Assembly: GCA_964616425.1 (NCBI GenBank)
Contig: CAZTQY010000004.1
Coordinates: 46,251 to 110,250, forward strand
Direction: 5' to 3'
Source of the DNA: an uncultured Candidatus Saccharibacteria bacterium
GTDB taxonomy: Bacteria; Patescibacteriota; Minisyncoccia; Phycocordibacterales; DATDWN01
Length of the DNA stretch: 64,000 bases
In this document: positions 2,004-52,649 of the stretch, in pieces
How positions within the stretch are numbered: position 1 is the first letter of the stretch
Layout: every line of letters begins with the position of its first letter
Notes under the pieces: generated by a model
Database searches by the model: none
Seen by the model: the letters and a program-made list of their open reading frames with translations, nothing else
What the model was told of the DNA's origin: nothing
Position numbers and translations under genes: made by a program

Positions 2004-2930
2004 ATGATAAAGGTTTTTTCTCACATTTCGCCAGACACAGACGCTACAGGTAGTGCTATTTTATGGTCTTGGTTTATGAACACTCATGGAGGAGTTGAAG
2101 CCAAGCCATTTGTTCTTGGTCCACTAAACAAGGAGACATTGTTTGTTCTCAATAAATGGGGTGTTCCTGAACCAGAACTCCTGTCGTCTCTACAAAAGGG
2201 TGATGATGTTGTTATTGTTGATACAAATAACCCACAGGAGTTACTTCCAGATATCATTGACGCAAATATTTTAAAAATAATAGATCATCATAAATTGTTT
2301 GGTGGTTTACAAACAAATTCTCCAGTAGAAGTTACAATGCGCCCTTTGGCATCGACCGCTTCTGTTATTCACGGTCTATTTGGTATCGAGGCAGATAGAC
2401 TGCCAGAAAACATGGCAGGAATAATGCTTTCTTGTATTTTATCCGATACTTTGGCTTTTCGTTCACCAACGACCACCGCTCATGACAAGGATATTGCTGA
2501 AAAATTAGCAAAACAATTAGGCGTCGATATAGAGACTTATTCTAATGAGATGTTTAGAGCAAAGTCAGATGTTTCTGATTTTACTGATATAGGTCTTCTG
2601 CATCTAGATAGTAAAAAGTTTCCAGTGGGGGATAAAAACATTCGCATTTCTGTAGTGGAAACTACAGACCCAGAATCAATTCTTTCTAGAAAGGACGGTC
2701 TAGTGTCTGCTATTAAGGAGATTCTTGTTAATGAGCCTGAAACAGATGATGTTTTGGTTTTTATAATCGACATCTTTAAAGAAGAAGCTTTTGTATTAAC
2801 TTATAACCAGTTTACTAAAGATGTTATTTCAAATTCATTTGAGGTAAATGTGGATGAAGATGTAAAAGTCTTGCCCGGAATTCTATCGAGAAAGAAGCAG
2901 ATAGTTCCAGCTCTTAAATTACCAGCATAA
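2004..2930 (+). CDS. ppaC: manganese-dependent inorganic pyrophosphatase (family II, DHH)
   Basis: MIKVFSHISPDTDATGS, DTNNPQE, IDHHKL, ILSDTLAFRSPTTT and SRKKQIVPAL match family II PPase motifs; start moved to 4th codon (MIKVF) of track ORF 1995. Confidence 0.8.
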   Translation: MIKVFSHISPDTDATGSAILWSWFMNTHGGVEAKPFVLGPLNKETLFVLNKWGVPEPELLSSLQKGDDVVIVDTNNPQELLPDIIDANILKIIDHHKLFGGLQTNSPVEVTMRPLASTASVIHGLFGIEADRLPENMAGIMLSCILSDTLAFRSPTTTAHDKDIAEKLAKQLGVDIETYSNEMFRAKSDVSDFTDIGLLHLDSKKFPVGDKNIRISVVETTDPESILSRKDGLVSAIKEILVNEPETDDVLVFIIDIFKEEAFVLTYNQFTKDVISNSFEVNVDEDVKVLPGILSRKKQIVPALKLPA

Positions 2931-2966
2931 AATAAAACACCCGATTGATCGGGTGTTTTATTTTAT
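2931..2966. terminator. bidirectional rho-independent terminator (acacccgattgatcgggtgt flanked by A/T runs)
   Basis: Perfect 8-bp stem with A-run upstream and T-run downstream between convergent ppaC and nusA. Confidence 0.6.
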
Positions 2967-4106
2967 TTATTCCTTTGGCTCTTTTTCTTCCTCTTCAGTT
3001 TTGTTGCCGACAGACTGAATGTCGATTTTCCAACCAGTTAGCTTTGCTGCGAGTCTTACGTTTTGTCCACCTTTACCTATAGCTAGTGACTGCTGATCTT
3101 CAGAAACAGTAACAGTCGCTTGTTTCTCCGCTTCGTTTATCTTTACTTCAATAGTTTTTGCAGGGGATAGAGCGTCTTCTATAAATTTCTTTGGATCTTC
3201 TGACCATTCTATAATATCTATTTTTTCTCCACCAAGTTCTGACATAACAGTAGAAACTCTAACTCCTCTTTGACCAACCATTGAACCAACAGGGTCAATA
3301 TGTGAGTCGCTTGATGAAACAGCTATTTTTGTTCTAGAACCAGCTTCTCGAGCCACAGACTTAACAACAACAGTGCCGTTGGCAATTTCTGGGGCCTCAG
3401 TTTCAAATAGTTTCTCTAAAAACTTTGGATGACTTCGAGAAAGTCGAAGAAATACACCTTTTCCAGATTCTTCTACTCGATATAGGTATGCGCGTATTCT
3501 TTCACCTTGACCAAATCTCTCTCCAGGAATCTGCTCTTCATAAGGAAGTAGGCCTGTTGCTCGTCCCATGTCGATAAATATGTTTCCGCGTTCAATTCTC
3601 TGAACTGTTCCAGAAACAATCTCACCTTCTCTTTTGCCGTACTCTGACATAACAGAAACTTTCTCTGCTTCTCGAATCTTTTGCATAATAACTTGTTTTG
3701 CTGTTTGAGCAGCGATTCGGCTATAGTCCTCTTGTCCTTCTAGAGGAAATATCATCTCATCTCCTAGTTGCACGTCCTTTTTTATACGACGAGCGTCGCT
3801 AATCATTATGTGCTTTTCTGGATTGTATAACTCAATCTCCACTTCACCTTCTTTAAGTTCAAGAGGTATTTCGTCTTCGTTCATCACTATAGTTGATTCA
3901 TCAACTACGATTTTTACCTGAAACATCTCTGTTTTTCCTGTATTCAAATCAAATTTAGCTCTAACGATCTGGCCTTTCTTTCCGTATTCTTTTTTGTATG
4001 CAGTAGCTAGGGCAAGTTCAATAGCCTCAATGATTTTTACTTGAGGGATACCTCGCTCTTCTTCAAGTTGAGCTAATACTGAATTGATTACTTTTAAATC
4101 CATCAT
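2967..4106 (-). CDS. nusA: transcription termination/antitermination factor NusA
   Basis: 379 aa; N-terminal NusA domain, S1 fold and two KH-like segments (GKGGQNVRLAAKLTGWKIDI). Confidence 0.9.
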   Translation of the reverse strand: MMDLKVINSVLAQLEEERGIPQVKIIEAIELALATAYKKEYGKKGQIVRAKFDLNTGKTEMFQVKIVVDESTIVMNEDEIPLELKEGEVEIELYNPEKHIMISDARRIKKDVQLGDEMIFPLEGQEDYSRIAAQTAKQVIMQKIREAEKVSVMSEYGKREGEIVSGTVQRIERGNIFIDMGRATGLLPYEEQIPGERFGQGERIRAYLYRVEESGKGVFLRLSRSHPKFLEKLFETEAPEIANGTVVVKSVAREAGSRTKIAVSSSDSHIDPVGSMVGQRGVRVSTVMSELGGEKIDIIEWSEDPKKFIEDALSPAKTIEVKINEAEKQATVTVSEDQQSLAIGKGGQNVRLAAKLTGWKIDIQSVGNKTEEEEKEPKE

Positions 4107-4366
4107 ATTGTTTGTTGTTATGAACTTCCAAATTTCATCAATCTCTGCGTTAAAATTGAAAAATTTTCGTCACCATACTGCTAAGTATGGTTTCTCAAAT
4201 TTTTCAATTTTGCCTTGACCTTGAAGAAATTGTGAAAGTTCTAATTTTTAAATTGATTATCCATTCTTATTTTACCGTATTTTGGTAAAAAAGAAGGTCC
4301 GGCTTTCGCCGAACTTCAATAAAATAATAATATCAGCTAAGAAATTGTTTGTCAAATTAATAAAAA

Positions 4367-4638
4367 GAGGGGCCCGTCCGAAGACAAGGCCCCTCTGGGG
4401 TTTGGTGCGGGACCGTTCTAGTCCGCACCTGGGGCATAGGAATACCCCATAGTATCCAAGCCTAAATCTGGAAATCAATGGTCATGACAGAGGCGTGCGC
4501 TCAAGTCCTTGATGAGTGTCTTGGACGAGGCACAGGTGACGGACTAACCATTGATTTTGATTTAAATGAGTGCCCGGTAACACCCATTGGTGACATGGAC
4601 TAGTCACCACCACTGCAGGCGTCCGCCACCCCTAAACC
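4367..4638. ncRNA. GC-rich (~58% GC) structured non-coding island, candidate ncRNA of unknown class
   Basis: No ORF >=60 aa consistent with region; strong hairpins: gaggggcc/ggcccctc (8 bp), ggtgcgg/ccgcacc (7 bp), atcaatggt/accattgat (9 bp long-range), ggtgac/gtcacc (6 bp). GC far above flanks. Confidence 0.3.
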
Positions 4639-4798
4639 AAAATGAGAACAACAACTTTTGAAAGTATATGTAAATTTTATTTATAGTCAAACATTTATTT
4701 TTTTTGTTAATGATCACCGAAAAGTTTTTATTGTTATAAACATTATTTATTAGAAAATGAATTAAGCATTGTGCTATAATTTGTATACAAATTTCTCT

Positions 4799-10247: not shown

Positions 10248-11710
10248 TGAAAAGAATAAAATTACAATCTGGAACCATTCTTCTCCAAGCTTTTGTTTTT
10301 GGAACAATTTCTATAATAATGATAGGTGCGTTAGTGTCTTGGGCTGGCTCAAATATAAAAGCTTCAAGGGTTGGAGTCAGACGAGAGCAAGCTTTGCAAA
10401 TAGCAGAAGCGGGAGTAGATTATTATAGATGGCATCTTGCTCATTCTGCTACTGATTTCCAAGATGGAACAGGATCGTCTGGGCCATATATACATGATTT
10501 TTATGATAAAGATGGTAATAAAATAGGGACATTTACTCTAGATATTACACCACCAGCTACAGGTTTTACATTGGTAAAAATTAAATCTACAGGTAAGGTT
10601 GACTCTGATCCAACAATATCTCGAGTAATAAATGTTCAATTAGCAAAACCTTCTTTGGCAAAGTATGCGGTTGTCTCAAATGCTGATATGAGATTTGGTG
10701 AGGGGACTGAAGTTTTTGGTCCTATACATTCAAATGGCGGTATTCGTTTTGATGGTTTAGCTCACAATATAATAACTAGTGCAAAGGATAAATATGATGA
10801 TCCAGATCATTCGGGTAGTAATGAGTTTGGTGTCCATACTCACGTTTTGTATCCTAGCGGAAATGTGAATGATAATTTTATTTCAGCAGAAGCACCACCA
10901 TCTTCTATTCAGAACAGAACAGATGTATTTGCTGCGGGTAGACAGTTTCCTGTACCAGCAGTTGATTTTGTTGGAATAACTACAGATTTATCTCAAATAA
11001 AAGCAGGTGCTCAGTCAGACGGAAAGTACTTATCAAGTTCAGGACAACAAGGATACCATATTATTTTTAAAACCAATGACACTTTTGATGTTTATAAAGT
11101 AAAAACTTTATCATCACCTCCAAACCGATGTACAAATGTATCAAATCAGACAGGTTGGGCCACATGGAGTATCAAGAGTGGTAGTGCAAACCAAACTTAT
11201 GTTGGTAATTATGTCATCCCGGCTAATGGTTTGATATTTATTGAGGATAATGTCTGGGTTGATGGACAGATTAATACTGCAAGGGTAACACTTGCTGCTG
11301 GGAAATTCCCAGATAGCCCAACTACTAGGCCAAGTATCACAATAAACGATAATTTGCTCTATACAAATTATGATGGTCAGGATGTTATATCACTGATAGC
11401 TCAGGATAATATAAATACAGGCTTACTTTCCGCAAACACGCTTAGGATTGATGCTGCTTTGGTTGCCCAAAACGGTCGCATAGGTAGATTTTATTATGAG
11501 GCAGATTGTGGTTCCGAATATAGAAGGAGTTCCATTACTTTATATGGGATGATAGCTACAAACGCTAGATATGGTTTTGCCTATACTGATGGCACGGGCT
11601 ATGACGAACGAGATATTATATATGACGCAAACTTGCTTTATGGTCCACCACCTAGTTTTCCTTTGACTAGTGACCAGTACCAGACCATCTCCTGGGACGA
11701 AACGAAATAG
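10247..11710 (+). CDS. pilus-associated membrane-anchored protein (PilX/minor pilin-like), hypothetical
   Basis: N-terminal hydrophobic helix (LLQAFVFGTISIIMIGALV) without canonical GFTxxE; operonic with pilins. Confidence 0.35.
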   Translation: MKRIKLQSGTILLQAFVFGTISIIMIGALVSWAGSNIKASRVGVRREQALQIAEAGVDYYRWHLAHSATDFQDGTGSSGPYIHDFYDKDGNKIGTFTLDITPPATGFTLVKIKSTGKVDSDPTISRVINVQLAKPSLAKYAVVSNADMRFGEGTEVFGPIHSNGGIRFDGLAHNIITSAKDKYDDPDHSGSNEFGVHTHVLYPSGNVNDNFISAEAPPSSIQNRTDVFAAGRQFPVPAVDFVGITTDLSQIKAGAQSDGKYLSSSGQQGYHIIFKTNDTFDVYKVKTLSSPPNRCTNVSNQTGWATWSIKSGSANQTYVGNYVIPANGLIFIEDNVWVDGQINTARVTLAAGKFPDSPTTRPSITINDNLLYTNYDGQDVISLIAQDNINTGLLSANTLRIDAALVAQNGRIGRFYYEADCGSEYRRSSITLYGMIATNARYGFAYTDGTGYDERDIIYDANLLYGPPPSFPLTSDQYQTISWDETK

Positions 11711-11714
11711 TTTG

Positions 11715-11830
11715 GGTCTTTTTATCCAATTTCCGCGTTGCTCGTTCCGTTTGATCCGCGCTTAGTACTATTAGTACAGCTTGGTCGCAGTACTCACTCG
11801 CGCCTTGAACTTGAACAAAAATCCACCAAA
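11715..11830 (+). repeat. copy A of ~120-nt conserved intergenic repeat (ggtctttttNcc..atttcNgcgttgct...AGTACTAnnnGTACAncTTGGTC...cTTGAACTnGAACAAAAATCC)
   Basis: Near-identical core to 23011-23128 and 44005-44085 (see findings). Confidence 0.6.
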
Positions 11831-11855
11831 CTAATTTTGTGGTATCATAATGGGT

Positions 11856-12614
11856 ATGAAAAAACCAAAGAAGCTTGTCGTAGGGAACTGGAAGATGAAT
11901 CCGACTAGTTTAGAAGAGGCAAGAAAAATAGTCAGCGGTGTAAAGCGGTCAATGAGTAAAATCAAAAAGACAGAAGTTGTTTTCTGTCCTCCTTATATTT
12001 ATTTAGCGCCTATTTCTAGTTATGTGAAAAATAATGTTTTTCTTGGTGCGCAAGATGCCAACAGTGAGACTGCTGGGCCATTTACTGGAGAAGTGGGTCA
12101 TATGCAACTACCGCAGTTTAAAGTTAAGTTTGTTATTGTTGGACACTCTGAGAGAAGAAAAATGGGGGACACAGATGAGATTGTTAACAAAAAAGTTCAG
12201 TCTGTTGTTTCTCTAGGTATGACAGCTATAGTGTGCATAGGAGAGAGTGAGCGGGATGCAAATGGAGATTATCTCGGTTTTATAAAGCAACAAATACAGA
12301 AGGCATTAAAGGATGTTCCAAAGAAATCTTTTGGAAATATTGTAATAGCATACGAACCAATCTGGGCTATTGGTGCAAAGAGCGCAATGACTCCGTTAGA
12401 TTTACACGAGATGTCTATTTATATAAGAAAAATTTTAAAGGATACTTACAGTATTGTTGGTGAAGACGTTAGGATTTTGTATGGAGGTTCAGTTGATAGG
12501 GTAAATGCAGCATCACTTGTTAAAGATGGTAATGTTTCTGGACTTTTGGTGGGAAGGCAGAGTCTTGAAGCAAAAGGTTTTTCTGAGATTATAAGCTTAG
12601 TAGATTCAATTTAG
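11856..12614 (+). CDS. tpiA: triosephosphate isomerase
   Basis: GNWKMN, VIVGHSERR, AYEPIWAIG, YGGSV motifs; -10 TATCAT ends 7 nt before ATG 11856 (leaderless); start MKKPKKL. Confidence 0.85.
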   Translation: MKKPKKLVVGNWKMNPTSLEEARKIVSGVKRSMSKIKKTEVVFCPPYIYLAPISSYVKNNVFLGAQDANSETAGPFTGEVGHMQLPQFKVKFVIVGHSERRKMGDTDEIVNKKVQSVVSLGMTAIVCIGESERDANGDYLGFIKQQIQKALKDVPKKSFGNIVIAYEPIWAIGAKSAMTPLDLHEMSIYIRKILKDTYSIVGEDVRILYGGSVDRVNAASLVKDGNVSGLLVGRQSLEAKGFSEIISLVDSI

Positions 12615-13759: not shown

Positions 13760-13769
13760 AGAATAAATA

Positions 13770-13800
13770 ACAAAAAACCGCCAGATGGCGGTTTTTTGTT
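13770..13800. terminator. bidirectional terminator aaaaaaccgccagatggcggttttttg
   Basis: 7-bp GC stem, A-run/T-run on both sides, between convergent pgk and HIT gene. Confidence 0.7.
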
Positions 13801-19711: not shown

Positions 19712-19758
19712 TATATTTTTTAATTATTTTAATTCCGTTCGAACCATGCTTTTGATAA

Positions 19759-19856
19759 GCAATCTATCTAGTCCTGCTGGGCTAGCGAACTTCTCGTCGC
19801 TCAAGAAAATAATAGTCGGAGTACCTCCTTTATTTTCTAAGCTCCTGCGAAAGGCT
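19759..19856 (-). promoter_or_regulatory. leader element copy 2 (inverted) with SD and 26-codon uORF (TTG)SDEKFASPAGLDRLLIKSMVRTELK, upstream of sodA-ybjQ
   Basis: Reverse complement ~90% identical to 17144-17247. Confidence 0.5.
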
Positions 19857-19897
19857 TTTCAAAAGCATAATCCGAACGGATTCATAAAGTACTGTTA

Positions 19898-22533: not shown

Positions 22534-23004
22534 ATGAGAAGAAAAGTAACTAACAGAAACATAGTAGGAAAGGACCATGTATACGGATCAGAGAAGATCG
22601 GTAAGTTTATTAACTATGTAATGCTAAGAGGTCAGAAGGAAACAGCTCGAGGTATTGTTTACGAAGCACTTGATTTGGTAAAGGAGAGAGCAAAAGTAGA
22701 AGACCCAATGGAGGTTCTAGAGACAGCTTTGAAAAATGCTGGACCTATGACAGAGGTTCGATCACGAAGAGTTGGTGGTGCTAACTACCAGATTCCTCGA
22801 GAGGTACGACCAGAGCGACGGTCATTCCTTTCTATGAAATGGATTATCGAAGCAGCTCGAGAAGGAAAGGGCGCTCCTATGGCCTCTAGACTAGCAGACG
22901 AGATTATCCTAGCTTCAAAGAACGAAGGAAAGGCAGCAAAGAAGAGAGAGGATACTCACAAGATGGCGGAGGCGAACAAAGCATTCGCACACTTGGCCTG
23001 GTAG
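22534..23004 (+). CDS. rpsG: 30S ribosomal protein S7
   Basis: Conserved S7 sequence throughout. Confidence 0.95.
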   Translation: MRRKVTNRNIVGKDHVYGSEKIGKFINYVMLRGQKETARGIVYEALDLVKERAKVEDPMEVLETALKNAGPMTEVRSRRVGGANYQIPREVRPERRSFLSMKWIIEAAREGKGAPMASRLADEIILASKNEGKAAKKREDTHKMAEANKAFAHLAW

Positions 23005-23010
23005 TTTTGC

Positions 23011-23128
23011 GGTCTTTTTGCCCGATTTCTGCGTTGCTAGTTTTGTTTGTTCCCGCAGAGTACTAAATGTACACTTTGGTCACAAACAAAACGTCGCGTC
23101 TTGAACTCGAACAAAAATCCTCACAAAA
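23011..23128 (+). repeat. copy B of ~120-nt conserved intergenic repeat
   Basis: Aligns with 11715-11830 and 44005-44085. Confidence 0.6.
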
Positions 23129-23190
23129 CTCATACTTTTTTCACTTGCATTATGTTAATGTTTTTGTGATATAATATTGCCAATAGAAAT

Positions 23191-23439
23191 ATGTCAGAAA
23201 TATTTAAAAATTCCTATACATTTCGTCTTTTTAAAAATGAACCTTCTTTTACTGACGGGATATCTTCTCTAATCGACAGATCACCAAATATTTTAAGATA
23301 CAACCAGGATGTAACTGAGAAAGAAGCTGATATAAATTCATTACGTGCTGATTGGTATGCAATAGGTAACGATTTGTGGAATGGAATAAAAAAATATGAG
23401 CAACAAAAACAGACAGTTTCAGCAACCCAACAATCATAA
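23191..23439 (+). CDS. hypothetical protein (possibly N-terminal part of the following gene, frame-shifted)
   Basis: 82-aa ORF preceded by extended -10 tgtgaTATAAT (23164-23174); overlaps next ORF in another frame. Confidence 0.25.
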   Translation: MSEIFKNSYTFRLFKNEPSFTDGISSLIDRSPNILRYNQDVTEKEADINSLRADWYAIGNDLWNGIKKYEQQKQTVSATQQS

Positions 23440-23824
23440 TCATAATGTTTTAATCGCTCAGAAAGCAGAGATGTTTAGTGGCCCCGTCCCTCACCCTGAG
23501 ATTATTGAGAGGTATGAAAAAATATATCCAGGTGCAGCAAAACAGATTTTCGAAGAATATGATAGACAAGTTCTACATCGACATTCAATTGAAAAAAGTG
23601 TAATAAAGACAGATAATATAAAATCCTTATTGGGAGTTATTTTCGGTTTTATCGTTGCAATGTCGACATTGATTGCTGGAGTAGTGGTTTGGATATTAAA
23701 AGGGGTGTCATTATTTGCAGGAGGACTATCTTTTTCCGGTATCGCTCTTATAGTTATTGCATTTATGGGTACGAATATGGGTACGAAATTTAAAGATGCA
23801 GGTAAAGATAAGGAGAAGAAGTAA
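23396..23824 (+). CDS. DUF2335-like membrane protein
   Basis: PHPEIIERYEKIYPGAAKQIFEEYDRQVLHRH followed by two TM helices, pattern typical of DUF2335 (often phage/mobile-associated). Confidence 0.45.
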   Translation: MSNKNRQFQQPNNHNHNVLIAQKAEMFSGPVPHPEIIERYEKIYPGAAKQIFEEYDRQVLHRHSIEKSVIKTDNIKSLLGVIFGFIVAMSTLIAGVVVWILKGVSLFAGGLSFSGIALIVIAFMGTNMGTKFKDAGKDKEKK

Positions 23825-23842
23825 TTTGCTAAAAGGAATTAC

Positions 23843-24034
23843 ATGGAAACTTTTTTTGATCTATTAAAAGACCCAGCGCATTGGGAGTTTGAGATTTTTC
23901 TCATTATTATTTTTGACGTAGTCATTGGACTTATCATTTGGCCTTTTATTCAAAAGGCTCTAGTTCACCATAAGTCAGATCATGAAAGACTAGAGGATCT
24001 AGAGAGGGAAGTAGAAGCTTTAAAAAATAAATAA
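23843..24034 (+). CDS. small membrane protein, hypothetical
   Basis: 63 aa, one TM helix, C-terminal coiled coil. Confidence 0.3.
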   Translation: METFFDLLKDPAHWEFEIFLIIIFDVVIGLIIWPFIQKALVHHKSDHERLEDLEREVEALKNK

Positions 24035-24035
24035 G

Positions 24036-24066
24036 TACGACAAAGGCCCCGATCTTCTGGGGCCTC
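24036..24066. terminator. hairpin ggccccgatcttctggggcc, terminator for minus-strand GC-rich ORF (T-run on minus strand)
   Basis: Perfect 6-bp GC stem; T-rich tail only on minus strand. Confidence 0.5.
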
Positions 24067-24088
24067 TGGTGAACTGTGTTGGGTGTGA

Positions 24089-24331
24089 CTACGCTTCGAC
24101 GATTGCGGGACTTGCCTGTTGTGCAAGCGAGAGTGTTTCAGGCTTCACCCACCCTCTTTCGTGGGTGTTCACGTATCCGCGTTCCTTGTGTCGAACGCCG
24201 ATGTGCGTGACCGTGAGTGTCTCGCCAGACTCCGTGTCGGTGACGACAACTGGCGGACAGAGTCTGGTGTTTCCGGTGACGGTGCTTGTTTCGGTTCTCG
24301 TTGCCTGAGCAACGAGCTCTTCGTTGGTCAT
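24089..24331 (-). CDS. GC-rich island ORF (hypothetical, ~80 aa)
   Basis: ~58% GC versus ~36% flanks; GGGGTGA SD 4 nt before ATG (MTNEELVAQ...); several overlapping ORFs in other frames, so strand/frame call is tentative. Confidence 0.3.
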   Translation of the reverse strand: MTNEELVAQATRTETSTVTGNTRLCPPVVVTDTESGETLTVTHIGVRHKERGYVNTHERGWVKPETLSLAQQASPAIVEA

Positions 24332-24454
24332 TCTCACCCCTGAAACTATTTCTATCACACGAGTTCTGTCATTGCAACGAGATGAGTTTTGGTATATAGT
24401 TTGAACCATTCCTATTGGGAATTTTTTTTACTCTTTATTATTATTTAATTATAT

Positions 24455-31749: not shown

Positions 31750-32127
31750 ATGACTGCAAAAGAAACAACAAAAAAAGCTCCAAAGAAGGCTCCTGCAAAG
31801 TCTGCAGTAAAGTCAGATGCTATTTCAAAGCTACGAATACGAGTTCGAGCTTACGAATACAAGATTTTAGACCTTTCAGTAAAGCAGATCATAGATACAG
31901 CTCTGAGATATGATGCAAAGGTAGAAGGACCTATCCCTCTTCCTACAGAGATAAAGAAATACACTGTAAACCGATCATCTTTCGTTTACAAAAATGCTCG
32001 AGAGCAGTTTGAAATGAGAATTCACAAGAGGGTAATAGACATTCTAAACCCTACACCAAAGATAATGGAAGCGTTAACAAACCTTTCATTGCCATCTGGA
32101 GTGAACATTGACGTAAAGATCATCTAA
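31750..32127 (+). CDS. rpsJ: 30S ribosomal protein S10 (with K-rich N-terminal extension)
   Basis: RIRVRAYEYKILD...GPIPLPT...conserved S10 core. Confidence 0.9.
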   Translation: MTAKETTKKAPKKAPAKSAVKSDAISKLRIRVRAYEYKILDLSVKQIIDTALRYDAKVEGPIPLPTEIKKYTVNRSSFVYKNAREQFEMRIHKRVIDILNPTPKIMEALTNLSLPSGVNIDVKII

Positions 32128-32130
32128 TCA

Positions 32131-32156
32131 AAAAACCACCTTCGGGTGGTTTTTTG
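32131..32156 (+). terminator. rho-independent terminator aaaaaccaccttcgggtggttttttg
   Basis: Hairpin + T-run; paralogous to terminator after tuf. Confidence 0.65.
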
Positions 32157-32191
32157 ATTAGATAAGTGATACCTTTTTGAGAGGAGGTTCC

Positions 32192-35019: not shown

Positions 35020-35024
35020 TTCAA

Positions 35025-35055
35025 AACAAAACCGCCGAAAGGCGGTTTTGTTTTG
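35025..35055 (+). terminator. terminator aaaccgccgaaaggcggttttgtttt
   Basis: Hairpin + T-run after rplB, before GC-rich island. Confidence 0.6.
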
Positions 35056-35119
35056 ACTATTTGAAATATATAGGTAATCTTTGGTATAGAGGCGATTTCG
35101 CCACTAATTGGAGGGATTA

Positions 35120-42607: not shown

Positions 42608-43879
42608 ATGAAAGAATTCTTTAATAAATTTTCACTAGTCTTCTCAGATAAAATTCTAAGAAGAAGAATATTCTTTACACTTTCAGCTCTTGCGTTGTTT
42701 AGAGTTCTTGCTTCTATACCTGTACCAGGTGTTGACCACGCAAGACTGGCACAGTTTTTTACTAGTAATGAATTTTTTGGTCTACTAAACATCTTTTCTG
42801 GAGGAGGTTTAGCACAACTTTCTATTGTTATGCTTGGTGTTGGTCCTTACATTACAGGTTCTATTATCATGCAGTTACTTACTATTATGTCTCCAAGACT
42901 AAAGGAGATGTACCAGGAAGAAGGTGAGGCTGGAAGAATGAAATTTGCACAATACAGTAGACTAGTTACAGTTCCATTGGCACTTTTACAATCATTTAGT
43001 TTTATTAAGCTTTTGGAGAACCAGCAAGTTATTGCTCATCTTTCACCGCTAGCTTTGGCTACAAACCTAATAGTTATATCAGCAGGTTCAGTATTACTAA
43101 TGTGGATCGGTGAACTTATATCAGAATACGGTATAGGAAATGGAATGAGTCTTATAATTTTTGCTGGTATCGTGGCATCTCTTCCGACTGAAATAAGTCA
43201 ACTAGCTTTCTCTTTTGATCCTTCACAGATTCCTGTTTATTTGGCGTTTGCAGTTGTAGCAGCTGTGGTTATTGTTGCTGTGGTTATTATCACAGAAGCT
43301 GAAAGGCCTATCCCAGTTACATATGCAAAGCAGGTTAGGGGTAATCGTGTATACGGTGGAACATCAACTTATCTTCCACTCCGAATCAACCAAGCAGGAG
43401 TTATTCCAATAATATTTGCATTGTCTATCCTTCTTTTCCCTCAAATGATATTGAGATTCTTGCAGAACTCAAGTCACGAAATAATACAAACAGTTTCTTC
43501 TGCTATTTTAAGAGTGTTGGCAAACAGCTGGTTCTACGCTATAGCATATTTCCTACTAGTATTTATATTTACTTACTTCTACACAGCAGTAACATTTGAT
43601 CCAGATCAGATTTCAACAAACCTCCAGAAAAATGGTGCGTTTATCCCAGGTGTTAGACCAGGAAAATCTACTTCAGAGCATATAGCAAAGATTCTAACTA
43701 GATTAACCTTAGTTGGAGCGTTGTTCCTAGGCTTTGTCGCAGTTCTTCCGCTTATCATGAGAGGTGTAACTGGTATTACAGCTGTCTCAGTCGGTGGTAC
43801 AGCACTCCTAATCGTTGTGTCAGTGGTAATCGACCTGATTAAACGAGTTGATGCTCAGGTTTCAATCCGAGAATATTAA
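42608..43879 (+). CDS. secY: preprotein translocase subunit SecY
   Basis: 10 TM helices and conserved SecY motifs. Confidence 0.9.
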   Translation: MKEFFNKFSLVFSDKILRRRIFFTLSALALFRVLASIPVPGVDHARLAQFFTSNEFFGLLNIFSGGGLAQLSIVMLGVGPYITGSIIMQLLTIMSPRLKEMYQEEGEAGRMKFAQYSRLVTVPLALLQSFSFIKLLENQQVIAHLSPLALATNLIVISAGSVLLMWIGELISEYGIGNGMSLIIFAGIVASLPTEISQLAFSFDPSQIPVYLAFAVVAAVVIVAVVIITEAERPIPVTYAKQVRGNRVYGGTSTYLPLRINQAGVIPIIFALSILLFPQMILRFLQNSSHEIIQTVSSAILRVLANSWFYAIAYFLLVFIFTYFYTAVTFDPDQISTNLQKNGAFIPGVRPGKSTSEHIAKILTRLTLVGALFLGFVAVLPLIMRGVTGITAVSVGGTALLIVVSVVIDLIKRVDAQVSIREY

Positions 43880-44004
43880 TTCTGGTTTTTTTGCCGAATT
43901 TCTTTGTTCTCGATTTTACTTTCCTTACAGGAACAGTACACCTTTCACATTTTGTTTACAAAATATTCAAGGTCTTGCGAAGTGATAAAATCACTTCTCA
44001 CTCC

Positions 44005-44085
44005 ACGCGCAGTACTAGATGTACAGCTTGGTCGAAAGTAAAATCTGCGAACTTCGAACTTCAACAAAAATCCGCAGAATTAGAA
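44005..44085 (+). repeat. copy C core of ~120-nt conserved intergenic repeat (5' portion of repeat at ~43883-43925)
   Basis: gcgcAGTACTAgatGTACAgcTTGGTCg...cTTCGAACTTCAACAAAAATCCgcaGaa aligns with copies A and B. Confidence 0.55.
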
Positions 44086-44119
44086 ACTTCACATTAGTAG
44101 TTGCGGAAAATCAAAAACA

Positions 44120-44160
44120 GTGTCAAAGAGTGAAAACTCTTTGACACTGTTTTTGTAGTT
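44120..44160 (+). terminator. strong terminator aaaaacagtgtcaaagagtgaaaactctttgacactgtttttg
   Basis: 13-bp stem with A/T runs. Confidence 0.65.
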
Positions 44161-44222: not shown

Positions 44223-45218
44223 ATGGCGAAGCCGCTACCTTTCGTATCGCCTATGAGGGCTTTACGAAATATCCGAGCGATGGATACCCAACCTGCAAAG
44301 GCGGATACAAAGCTTGGGAAAAAGCTGCAAGCTCTTTTCCCAGACTATGACCCAAAGTTTGACCGTGAAAAGTCAGATGAGGTTCGACTGTACTACCTGC
44401 CACAGGTTGTACACCTATCAGATAGTGACCTACTTGCAGAGCTCGATTACTGGGCTCGAAAGTATGCCAGTCGGAACGACGTGGAATACTCCACCAAAAC
44501 TCCGATCGGTGACTTTCTCTCCCAGGCAAAGAGCCTGCAAAGGAAGATAAGACAGGGCCTGCATCCTGAGAAGCTGACCCCTTTGTACCGCAGAACTATC
44601 ATCAAGGGGTGCATTGCACTCAGATGGCAGGTAGTGCCGTACTTCCCGGGGCCTTCAATCTCAGGACAGCCTAGTGTCCGTGGCTGTATCAATGGTCACA
44701 AGCACTTTCTCTATGAGGACACTGACTGGCAGCTGGCCCAGAGGCTCGCTTCACTCGTAGGTTCCTGCGACATTGCTCTTCACGAGCTGTCGTTCATGGC
44801 ACGGAGTTGGCGGTCTGCATGGGACAAGGGTCCAGAGAAGTTCTCCTTCGAGTCAGATGGTCATCGGAAGTGGGCTGAGAAGCTCCATCACTCACTCCTC
44901 GAGAGAGAGGCGGGCATTTTCTACGATCAGGCACAAAGGTTCAGGGAGATGGTCGGGTTCCTGAAAAGGGTCCCACTCTGGCGGAGAAATCCAATCCAGG
45001 CGAACCTTTCGATTCTTCCAGATGCGGTCATTGTGACCAAAACGGAAGAGACCGATGCTGACCCAGAGAAGCCTGTTCGCCCGGCAGACCTCGGGGATTT
45101 ACTCTCAGTTCCAGATCTTGGTGACTGGGTAGGAGACTGCTTCCAGTATCGGCTCGACTTTCCACGTGTGGAGGTCGAATGGAACGGTGAAGCTGTTCAA
45201 AGTGAAATTAGTTTTTAA
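44223..45218 (+). CDS. GC-rich island ORF (hypothetical 331 aa)
   Basis: AGGAGT SD 6 nt before ATG; ~58% GC; followed by GC hairpin cgacggccacctagaggagtggtcgtcg and promoter TTTATC-17-TATAAT (45247-45275) for adk. Confidence 0.4.
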   Translation: MAKPLPFVSPMRALRNIRAMDTQPAKADTKLGKKLQALFPDYDPKFDREKSDEVRLYYLPQVVHLSDSDLLAELDYWARKYASRNDVEYSTKTPIGDFLSQAKSLQRKIRQGLHPEKLTPLYRRTIIKGCIALRWQVVPYFPGPSISGQPSVRGCINGHKHFLYEDTDWQLAQRLASLVGSCDIALHELSFMARSWRSAWDKGPEKFSFESDGHRKWAEKLHHSLLEREAGIFYDQAQRFREMVGFLKRVPLWRRNPIQANLSILPDAVIVTKTEETDADPEKPVRPADLGDLLSVPDLGDWVGDCFQYRLDFPRVEVEWNGEAVQSEISF

Positions 45219-47248: not shown

Positions 47249-47473
47249 TTTCAACCCATTTTGTAATTCTTGCAAGTTCCCGGAGTAAAATTTAGGGGTA
47301 TAATCTATGCAGGGTCACTAATGATATTTTCCTCCTAAAGCTTATTTAGGGAGCCTTATATCTTTGTACCACGATGAGTTTGCATCTCATTGAGATGTAT
47401 AGTTCTGACGAGTCCATGTGCGGGCACCCACCTACATTTTCAGTAGGGAAATATCGTCTGTGATCCTATTAAA

Positions 47474-47589
47474 ATTCCAAATTCAGGACATTTCTTTGTT
47501 GAAATGTGAAAAATAATCCTCACCTTATGTCTGAGTAAGGCTCGAATTATTTTCCACATTTCGCCTCGAACTGTATCTGAATTTGGAAT
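47474..47589. repeat. ~115-nt nearly perfect long hairpin (nested inverted repeats attccaaattcag...ctgaatttggaat; gaaatgtgaaaaataat...attattttccacatttc)
   Basis: 13-bp outer IR, 17-bp inner IR (1 mismatch), inner 5-bp stem; intergenic upstream of 47610 ORF. Confidence 0.4.
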
Positions 47590-47609
47590 TTTAGTTTACA
47601 ATAGTATAT

Positions 47610-48002
47610 ATGCTTGAGAAAAGTTTGTTCAAAAAAGCTTTCGCACTTTTGTTTATTGTTGGGCTCATGTCTGTGGCTGATAATTTTCTATACTTAACTT
47701 GGATATATTGGTGGTTTGATATGGTTATGCATTTTACGGCAGGGGGTGTTGTTGGTATGGCAACCATTATTACTTGTGTATATTTTTCAAGGTATGTAAA
47801 CGATAAAACAAGATTGGTTTTGTGTGCTGTTGGCGCTGGGTTAGTTGTAGGTTTGTTGTGGGAAGTTTTTGAATTGTATTTTAATCTGACTACGTTTTCT
47901 GATGGAATGGTCTATGTTACAGATACCCTTTCTGATTTGTTTCTAGATATGTCTGGCGCACTACTTTTTTCTGTATTTTCTATCAGACATATAAAAAGGT
48001 AA
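47610..48002 (+). CDS. hypothetical membrane protein (4 TM)
   Basis: 130 aa, hydrophobic helices. Confidence 0.4.
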   Translation: MLEKSLFKKAFALLFIVGLMSVADNFLYLTWIYWWFDMVMHFTAGGVVGMATIITCVYFSRYVNDKTRLVLCAVGAGLVVGLLWEVFELYFNLTTFSDGMVYVTDTLSDLFLDMSGALLFSVFSIRHIKR

Positions 48003-49394: not shown

Positions 49395-49425
49395 AACAAA
49401 AAACCGCCATATGGCGGTTTTTTGT
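49395..49425. terminator. bidirectional terminator aaaaaaccgccatatggcggttttttg
   Basis: Between convergent MBL gene and rplT. Confidence 0.7.
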
Positions 49426-49769
49426 TATTTTGCTAGAGCTACTACTTTTGCAAAAGTCTCAGGATTCTCCTCAACTAGTGTTGCTAGGATCTTTCGATCT
49501 AGTAGGATTCCTTTTTTCTTTAGTCCTCCCATAACTTTACTGTATGAAGTCCCCATTTCCTTTAGAGCGTATGAGATCTTTACATTCCACATGTTACGAG
49601 CATCACCCTTTTTGTCCTTTCGGTGAGCAAATGCAGAAGCACCTGCGTGGAAGATAGCTTCCTGTGCCTGTCGTTCCTTTGTTGATCTTCCATTTCTAAA
49701 ACCTTTTACTCGTCTGAGTATATTTCGTCTTGATTTTAGTGCATTTACTCCTTTCTTTACTCTTGTCAT
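49425..49769 (-). CDS. rplT: 50S ribosomal protein L20
   Basis: Conserved L20 sequence. Confidence 0.9.
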   Translation of the reverse strand: MTRVKKGVNALKSRRNILRRVKGFRNGRSTKERQAQEAIFHAGASAFAHRKDKKGDARNMWNVKISYALKEMGTSYSKVMGGLKKKGILLDRKILATLVEENPETFAKVVALAK

Positions 49770-52461: not shown

Positions 52462-52649
52462 TGTCATCCCCCTGAAATAGACTTCTTGTTTATATTATTT
52501 TCTTTTTCTCATAATTTTTTCTTGTAACAGAATAATTTTCTGCTGAAAATTTTCTTTCTACTCACCTTTTCACAGGTTCCGTAGATACAAGAAAAAATTA
52601 TGAGTCAACGAAAATAAAAAGAAATTTACTTTAGCCGAATGATAGGGAA

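Follow-up and report, generated by a model that had tools for sequence, protein, structure and literature searches.

A multi-copy hairpin element at gene ends in a clade of Patescibacteria, a candidate cis-acting structured RNA domain of mRNA untranslated ends

Long imperfect hairpins that mostly begin at the stop codons of genes form a family that is real, widespread and specific to a Patescibacteria clade, and five of its members lie within the window, i.e., the whole stretch of 64,000 nucleotides analysed here. From sequence comparison, we consider the chances about even that selection maintains the element as a structured RNA domain that acts in cis and lies within the untranslated mRNA ends of this clade. 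It is not a promoter/operator, an independent sRNA gene, an intrinsic terminator or an attC site.

The original prediction described three conserved intergenic copies, and these have proved to be real: the core AGTACTANNNGTACANNTTGGTC is present exactly three times, always on the plus strand (starts 11764, 23059 and 44011), and the chance expectation of this 18-base core in the 64-kb window is 0.02 even at three mismatches, with no fourth match found. The motifs shared on the 5′ and 3′ sides have been seen again on direct reading and in a multiple alignment of the three regions, which has borne out the conservation. The proposed extents (11715–11830, 23011–23128 and 43883–44085) have had to be redrawn, the true units being whole hairpins that include the upstream stop codon (Table 1). 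A covariance model (R1) has been built from 75 related sequences and iterated once (R2), and with filters switched off R2 finds exactly five members in the window, the next best match having E = 0.52. Copies 4 and 5 have the lower scaffold in common with copies 1–3 and differ from them in the apex. As predicted, copies 1–3 each follow the end of a gene (a 487-aa ORF, rpsG and secY), and pairing in each hairpin starts with the stop codon of that gene or immediately behind it. In copy 1 the stop codon TAG (11708–11710) of the 487-aa ORF, which has no Pfam match, pairs with CTA (11831–11833), and in copy 3 the secY stop TAA (43877–43879) pairs with TTA (44080–44082). Copy 2 folds with z = −4.2 on the plus strand and −5.7 on the minus strand, and copy 3 is longer than copies 1 and 2 because a 79-nt module sits between its 5′ arm and the core. 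The 5′ end of copy 4 is 15 nt from the start codon (CAT, 4104–4106) of the minus-strand nusA, and copy 5, upstream of which lies a non-coding stretch that is conserved, stops 16 nt short of an ATG at 47610.

Table 1. Hairpin copies, apex cores, module and canonical terminators in the window (window coordinates; scores refer to covariance model R2)
Feature	Position	Strand	Details
Copy 1, full hairpin	11708..11833	+	94.6 bits, E = 8.6e-18
Copy 1, apex core	11764..11786	+	AGTACTATTAGTACAGCTTGGTC, type A
Copy 2, full hairpin	23002..23130	+	from rpsG stop TAG (23002-23004); 109.2 bits
Copy 2, apex core	23059..23081	+	type A
Copy 3, full hairpin	43877..44082	+	from secY stop codon; recognised by R2
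Copy 3, optional three-hairpin module	43923..44001	+	79 nt, in 5′ arm
Copy 3, apex core	44011..44033	+	type A
Canonical intrinsic terminator	44112..44160	+	20-bp perfect stem and T run, 30 nt after copy 3
Copy 4, hairpin	4122..4241	+	region 4113-4248; 75.1 bits, E = 2e-13
Copy 5, hairpin	47470..47593	+	region 47462-47599; 55.6 bits, E = 4.5e-9
Canonical bidirectional terminator	13769-13800		at or overlapping stop codon
Canonical bidirectional terminator	49395-49426		at or overlapping stop codon
Canonical bidirectional terminator	35021-35056		at or overlapping stop codon
Canonical bidirectional terminator	32122-32163		at or overlapping stop codon
Canonical bidirectional terminator	2927-2966		at or overlapping stop codon

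Each copy folds as one long imperfect hairpin of ~125 nt, which from base to tip consists of a locus-specific basal stem, an outer stem that is family-specific and falls into several sequence classes, a conserved lower internal loop (5′ UUUCUKYGUUG, 3′ GCCUYGAAC), a variable inner stem and the apex; no sub-palindrome has been found inside either arm. The inner stem is either paired throughout, as in copy 2, or carries a conserved YUCCG/KNCUCR loop, and in copy 1 this stem (P3) has the internal loop UUCCG/UACUCAC. The type A apex reads UCC(A)CGC-NN-A-GUAC-UAnnn-GUAC-A-N′N′-UUGGUC with conserved G-U, C-U and A-A oppositions, the type B apex reads UCGUCACC-(4–6 bp hairpin)-GGCUCCUCGC, and additional types are present in metagenomic relatives. 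Copies 4 and 5 are of type B, the apex of copy 4 (~4170–4197) being TCACCATACT-GCTA-AGTATGG-TTTCTC, segmented as TCACC-ATACT-GCTA-AGTAT-GG-TTTCTC, and that of copy 5 (~47518–47544) TCACC-TTAT..TAAGG-CTC. The optional module comprises three hairpins with conserved linkers, laid out as H1 (loop UUACA), C.GUACAC, H2, UCUUGCG, H3 and CUCAC. It has been found in the 5′ arm (window copy 3 and L040), in the 3′ arm (L003) or in both (L020), in identical orientation in every occurrence, and 14 of its 25 pairs show compensatory changes among just five sequences, two of them from L020. Likenesses noticed by eye to the sarcin-ricin loop (AGUAC), to the 16S 3′ end and anti-Shine-Dalgarno sequence (UCACCU/CUCCUC in type B apices) and to a toxin cleavage motif (UACA) have been judged too weak to be claimed.

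The covariation analysis across related genomes has clearly supported the structure. The 47-pair hairpin taken from copy 2 has been tested on the 75-sequence alignment, with shuffles and with partners slid by 1–3 columns as controls, and standard pairs occupy 79.6% of cells against 62.2% in the shuffles and at most 45.5% with slid partners. Changes on both sides are found in 37 of the 47 base pairs, and the covariation score of 0.419, to be compared with 0.154 for shuffled alignments (0 of 500 reach 0.419) and at most 0.173 for slid partners, places the compensatory changes well above the controls, as expected of a structured cis-regulatory RNA in general. RNAalifold has predicted 26 pairs, 18 of them with compensatory changes. 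The invariance of 18 core bases in the main alignment is imposed by the search pattern, and the model-based matches give the unbiased picture. At the apex, the two bases 5′ of AGTACTA and the two 3′ of GTACA covary perfectly (AG/CT, GA/TC, GC/GC, AA/TT and GG/CC), and the apical stem GUAC/GUAC is replaced by GUAG/CUAC in L050 and by GUAU/AUAC in L056. Because the flanking pairs covary and the stem itself shows compensatory variants, the palindromic hexamers AGTACT and TGTACA, originally ascribed to a dimeric regulator, are the two strands of an apical RNA or ssDNA stem. The basal stems vary between copies through compensatory changes, even at orthologous loci (L026, L047 and L052), where those following the same 61-aa gene read AAUCUACC/GGUAGAUU, AAUUUAC/GUAAAUU and AAUUUGC/GCAAAUU; over the family, the terminal 5–9 bp differ and yet covary, further examples being UUUGG/CCAAA, UUUUG/CAAAA and UUCUG/CAGAA. 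In L010 and L017, the basal stem reaches into the coding sequence.

The predicted recurrence beyond the window has been established by a scan for the exact core in one genome per species (185,579 species), which has yielded 87 loci, 84 of them in Patescibacteria and three, chance matches, in Flavobacterium coding sequence; with these further copies and their conservation in related genomes, the family is real beyond the window. The 84 loci come from ~50 Patescibacteria species assemblies, several genomes giving 2–4 loci each, which carry the depositor labels Paceibacterota, Parcubacteria, Minisyncoccia, Zambryski-, Taylor- or Nomurabacteria and 'Saccharibacteria'. Among viral contigs there are four exact-core matches, all without the scaffold and thus due to chance, and no true copies. 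At one pair of loci, L049 (a WWE3 MAG) and L059 (a Zambryskibacteria MAG) from the same sampling series, element and flanks are identical; this is probably a binning or cross-assembly artefact, and the WWE3 record is consequently not independent evidence of phylum breadth. The family matches no Rfam entry, and a keyword-limited literature search has found no published description of the element in Patescibacteria. In Rfam 15, a gathering scan of the whole window, which is the scan that covers copy 1, yields only tmRNA and one tRNA, and permissive scans of copies 2–5 give miRNA-precursor-like matches only, at 12–24 bits against cut-offs of 60–211. The hammerhead, twister, pistol, hatchet and hairpin ribozymes and the 3′-UTR/leader motifs are among the Rfam families considered and rejected, no score having come near threshold.

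The position of the elements is strongly linked to genes. In the exact-core set, 75 of 82 elements have a co-directional upstream ORF, and the core starts 53–55 nt past the stop codon in 42 of 78 cases; the downstream ORF may lie on either strand (48 same, 21 opposite). When 100 elements have been classified, 83 begin at a co-directional stop codon, 11 are start-adjacent and 6 are neither. In the 11 start-adjacent cases, it is the same (5′) end of the element that lies 2–16 nt from the start codon of an opposite-strand ORF, the sense RNA of the adjacent gene being the complement of the element. Such a site is conserved at nusA, where window copy 4 has a type B apex and the orthologous L081 site type A. 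An inverted pair brackets an ORF in L001, L073, L052 and L087, and back-to-back pairs between genes occur in L056 and L105. The upstream genes are diverse housekeeping genes, S7, HU and SecY being recurrent and EF-G, L2, FtsZ, MreB, DnaB, DEAD-box helicases, a proton-pumping pyrophosphatase and a tRNA synthetase being among the others. No particular stop codon is favoured before the element (TAA/TAG/TGA 51/24/3, matching the genome-wide 61/31/8%), and copies without an upstream ORF have no adjacent tRNA gene.

Orthologous loci have been compared most closely after rpsG. Between the window and L046, S7 is 79% identical in nucleotides and 86% in protein, and the element is 90% identical; in more distant pairs the element reaches 60–78% and S7 69–76%. 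Element identity falls as the genes diverge and is on a par with that of coding DNA, the hup and secY loci behaving alike, and the 90% between orthologous copies is to be set against 74–78% between paralogues within the window. Fifteen metagenomic S7 relatives have been sampled irrespective of element presence, the relatives compared having at most 86% S7 identity to the window. The site is empty in L097 and L099, with 6–11 nt to fusA, it holds a canonical terminator embedding the stop codon in the closest relative L092, and it holds an element-like hairpin in L100, L101, L102 and L105, a group in which further copies lie upstream of rpsG, apparently after rpsL. Such a distribution speaks for elements that purifying selection has kept over long times and that are now and then gained, lost or replaced, and recent transposition does not fit it. 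The earlier suggestion of a miniature repeat used as an insertion target has held up to the extent that foreign genes follow copies 2 and 3; on the other side, L060 and L085 have rpsG, element and fusA without an insertion, and in L092 the same junction carries an 838-nt insert without an element. The extra genes of the window interrupt otherwise conserved operons. Those between rpsG and fusA (23191–24409) comprise a DUF2335 membrane protein, which matches a phage 'moron' membrane-protein PHROG, and small ORFs, and the one between secY and adk (44223–45218) is a 331-aa ORF of ~50% G+C without a family in Pfam, NCBIfam or PHROGs. In L014 (3825–4070), a degraded second rpsG 3′ end (CATTTCGCCTAGTAA) stands directly before a hairpin element, ~220 nt downstream of the intact rpsG with its terminator, which suggests that recombination exchanged the gene end and left the element where it was.

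With regard to the strand on which selection acts, three conserved G-U positions have been found on the plus strand (columns 43/108, 45/105 and 66/88), and outside these G-U is counted 123 times against 174 for A-C; in a classical one-strand RNA motif, G-U is expected far above A-C. Folding energy is more favourable on the complementary strand for 74 of 83 elements (mean −38.3 versus −30.6 kcal/mol), and likewise for the module. Because G-U and A-C are nearly strand-symmetric, a DNA-level or MITE-like origin keeps some probability. From the way in which the elements are oriented to genes and placed ahead of terminators, it is the plus-strand version that abundant sense transcripts would contain. 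The near-symmetry may possibly mean that both RNA polarities are used (sense 3′ UTRs and, with reversed copies, 5′ UTRs), that mismatches are favoured which keep a 50-bp duplex from becoming perfect dsRNA, or that the constraint is partly on DNA.

Among the alternatives to an RNA domain, a MITE-like origin has been regarded as unlikely, although several observations agree with it. The element would then be a miniature palindromic repeat, selfish or domesticated, that has colonised very compact genomes as DNA at their few neutral positions, e.g., immediately behind stop codons. Both arms would be recognised by a single mobilising protein and would match for that reason, the RNA hairpin being a by-product. 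Five copies in 64 kb, the pairing near-symmetry, the occurrence of the module on either arm, the bracketing and back-to-back pairs, the foreign genes behind copies 2 and 3, an inner-stem variant (CGATTTTACTT) that recurs after different genes with different outer arms in different genomes, and TA dinucleotides on both flanks in 18 of 43 well-defined cases are all in line with mobility. However, conserved terminal inverted repeats, as expected among MITE copies, have not been found, the terminal stems being locus-specific, compensatory and able to pair with coding sequence. TA is self-complementary and may just extend the stem, and the right-hand flank has no signature of insertion into the TA of a stop codon, the base after the right-hand TA being T in 8, A in 5 and G in 5 cases. 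Moreover, orthologous copies persist at ~70% S7 protein identity, evolve no faster than coding DNA and are more similar than paralogues, the strong gene-linked orientation would be unexpected for a symmetric MITE, viral contigs are without true copies, and no transposase has been noticed. A site acting on DNA, i.e., a cruciform or hairpin to which a recombinase, a nucleoid protein or a replication factor would bind, and possibly a hot spot of insertion or exchange, appears very improbable. It would account for the strand-symmetric pairing statistics, for the same physical end always facing the adjacent ORF whether this ends or starts there, for the insertions adjoining copies 2 and 3 and for the rpsG remnant of L014. 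Against it, orientation follows the genes, with no case of both neighbours reading toward the 5′ end of the element, away from abutting it, the elements lie in presumably transcribed 3′ UTRs upstream of terminators, and the rpsG/fusA hot spot exists without an element in L092. Integron attC sites, which run from R″ (RYYYAAC) on their 5′ side to R′ (GTTRRRY) on their 3′ side and occur in cassette arrays with a nearby intI, resemble the element as imperfect hairpins right after a co-oriented ORF, conserved in structure more than in sequence and folding better on the complementary strand. In the element, however, the apex is conserved and not variable, the GTT box precedes the AAC box whichever strand is read, opposite to R″/R′, and the upstream genes (rpsG, secY and hup) are core housekeeping genes in conserved operons without a cassette array, so that the attC reading has been rejected.

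A signal that forms 3′ ends or punctuates genes, either as a factor-dependent terminator or insulator or as a processing site (e.g., of RNase III type) at which polycistronic RNA is cut at ORF boundaries and protective hairpins are left on the mRNA ends, seems quite doubtful. The element is a long interrupted duplex, abuts tightly on ORF ends, stops and starts, occurs back to back between genes and takes the same slot as canonical terminators, which here embed the stop codon (32122–32163 and 2927–2966); after rpsG, relatives have nothing, a terminator or an element-like hairpin, and copies 1 and 2 directly precede extended −10 elements with no other terminator between. Stop-codon abutment is a general property of 3′ hairpins here, since the many canonical A-tract/hairpin/U-tract terminators of the window also start at or overlap stop codons. 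Two of the five bidirectional ones listed in Table 1 are nearly identical (AACAAAAAACCGCCA..TGGCGGTTTTTTGTT), and that at 2927–2966 is wedged exactly between two convergent stop codons. No U-tract or T run follows the hairpin on either strand, and RNase III needs no conserved apex. A canonical same-strand terminator within ~60 nt follows 22 of 81 elements (27%), compared with 16% of 497 other long ORFs; this order is found at copy 3 and, in other genomes, after secY, rpsG, hup and fusA. Being placed, in these cases, between the stop codon and the real terminator, the element is 3′-UTR content and not a terminator, and the intrinsic-terminator reading has been discarded for this reason and for the missing short G+C-rich stem with U-tract. 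Several elements lie inside operons, 5–15 nt ahead of the next start codon, and transcription must therefore read through them; where an element adjoins a start codon, the sense RNA of that gene carries the sequence complementary to the element. Even less probable, and extremely so, are the original readings as a promoter/operator module for a dimeric regulator or an independent small RNA gene. In favour of an operator, AGTACT and TGTACA lie one helical turn apart, but the covariation in and around them reflects intramolecular pairing and not a duplex operator. The proposed −35 region, TTGAAC..AAAAATCC, does resemble a −35 hexamer in TTGAAC; it is actually the 3′ arm of the lower stem, the partner of the 5′ arm, and no −10 lies at 16–18 nt from it. 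A promoter and terminator consensus scan around copies 1 and 2 has found no promoter inside the elements and no enrichment of promoter-like sites (38 against 40.8 expected). What stands of the promoter proposal is that extended −10 sequences, recognised by eye, follow copy 1 (TGgTATCAT, 11840–11848) and copy 2 (TGaTATAAT, 23167–23175), which are promoter-like and belong to the downstream genes. The former is very close to the tpiA start (11840–11858), and the tpiA mRNA may be leaderless, in which case its start codon would be the ATG at 11856 (MKKPKKLVVGNWKMN) and not that at 11850. As to the sRNA, nothing indicates a stand-alone gene: the element begins at the stop codon, which leaves no room for a promoter of its own, and it often lies inside an operon or precedes the terminator of the upstream gene.

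The nearest known kind appears to be the class of transcribed intergenic palindromes represented by ERIC, Correia and REP sequences. The enterobacterial repetitive intergenic consensus (ERIC) and the Neisseria Correia elements are imperfect palindromes of 100–150 bp with many copies per genome; they are intergenic but transcribed, are co-transcribed with the flanking genes as long RNA hairpins, are kept at orthologous sites and are TA-flanked. The present element is similar as a multi-copy, imperfect, intergenic palindrome that is retained at orthologous sites and has TA on both flanks in part of the cases. It differs from them in its locus-specific, covarying terminal stems that embed the stop codon, in the coupling of its orientation to the adjacent ORF, in its modular apex and in its conservation across very divergent genomes, and it is not known to have sequence similarity to them or a mobilising enzyme. 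REP/BIME sequences are extragenic palindromes at gene 3′ ends that stabilise the upstream mRNA, and REPINs are hairpins of ~100 nt. The element is likewise a repeated extragenic palindrome at gene 3′ ends, but it lacks the short REP unit (~20–35 nt) with GTAG head and the inverted-doublet architecture of REPIN-RAYT systems, no RAYT gene has been noticed, it has a strong orientation bias, and its conserved part is an asymmetric apex. The RNase III hairpins of phage T7 and the 3′ inverted repeats of chloroplasts define or protect mRNA ends and are not terminators; like the element, they form series of related hairpins, intercistronic or at 3′ ends, that carry internal loops, whereas the element is longer, has a conserved apex and is also found reversed beside start codons. 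With Rho-independent terminators, it has the place directly after the stop codon, often overlapping it, in compact genomes in common, but it is without a G+C-rich short stem or U-tract and often precedes the real terminator.

Further candidates have been noticed in the non-coding parts of the window. Between copy 4 and a pilB-like ORF (4769), a G+C-rich stretch at 4345–4640 (GAGGGGCCCG...GGGGTTTGGTGCGGG...CACCTGGGGCA...) with TTGTCA and an A/T-rich −10-like sequence upstream is conserved block-wise in L081 at the orthologous nusA/pilB spacer. No Rfam family matches it, and it has the look of a structured RNA gene that has escaped annotation. The non-coding stretch at 47300–47455 has CTCCTAAGCT..GGGAGCCT..TGCGGGCACCCACCTA..TAGGG in common with L063, whose counterpart is followed by a terminator and then a hairpin element; the stretch is without an Rfam match or a credible ORF and may be a further conserved small RNA. 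The hairpin model does not recognise two more long inverted repeats, at 19727–19887 and 52495–52617, whose arms measure 34 nt and 32 nt; one of the two occupies a divergent intergenic region, and the other adjoins the tmRNA gene.

Returning to the reading as a structured RNA domain of mRNA ends, the element would be transcribed together with the upstream gene and would fold into an irregular hairpin of ~125 nt, whose base would pair with the stop codon or start right after it. The conserved, mostly paired and mismatched apex is probably bound by a putative protein, for which it would serve as the docking site, and this conserved protein, once docked, would set the fate of housekeeping mRNAs, stability, processing at gene boundaries and translation-linked control being the candidate fates. 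A block to 3′-exonucleases would be redundant in those elements that are followed by a terminator, precisely because the terminator follows. Where a copy lies reversed immediately ahead of a start codon, the neighbouring mRNA would acquire a hairpin at its 5′ end. More tentatively, and with the balance of probability against it, the hairpin may be a shared 'tag' on housekeeping mRNAs (those of ribosomal proteins, EF-G, SecY, HU, FtsZ, MreB, DnaB and NusA) that is read by a dedicated putative protein, either as a regulon marker, which could be likened to the histone mRNA stem-loop, or as a gene-punctuation system that would trim polycistronic RNA precisely to the limits of the ORFs. Different readers would then be addressed through the interchangeable apex types and the add-on module.

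Gene regulation and RNA metabolism of Patescibacteria are barely known, and their tiny genomes hold little non-coding DNA. In the window, five sites give up ~125–200 bases to a single conserved structure, which is maintained as strictly as coding sequence. A covariance model of the family would improve annotation, as it marks true stop codons and some start codons, and the conserved apex could serve as bait for a putative reader protein. Should the element prove to be an mRNA tag that a protein reads, or a boundary signal, it would reveal how Patescibacteria coordinate or process their core transcripts.
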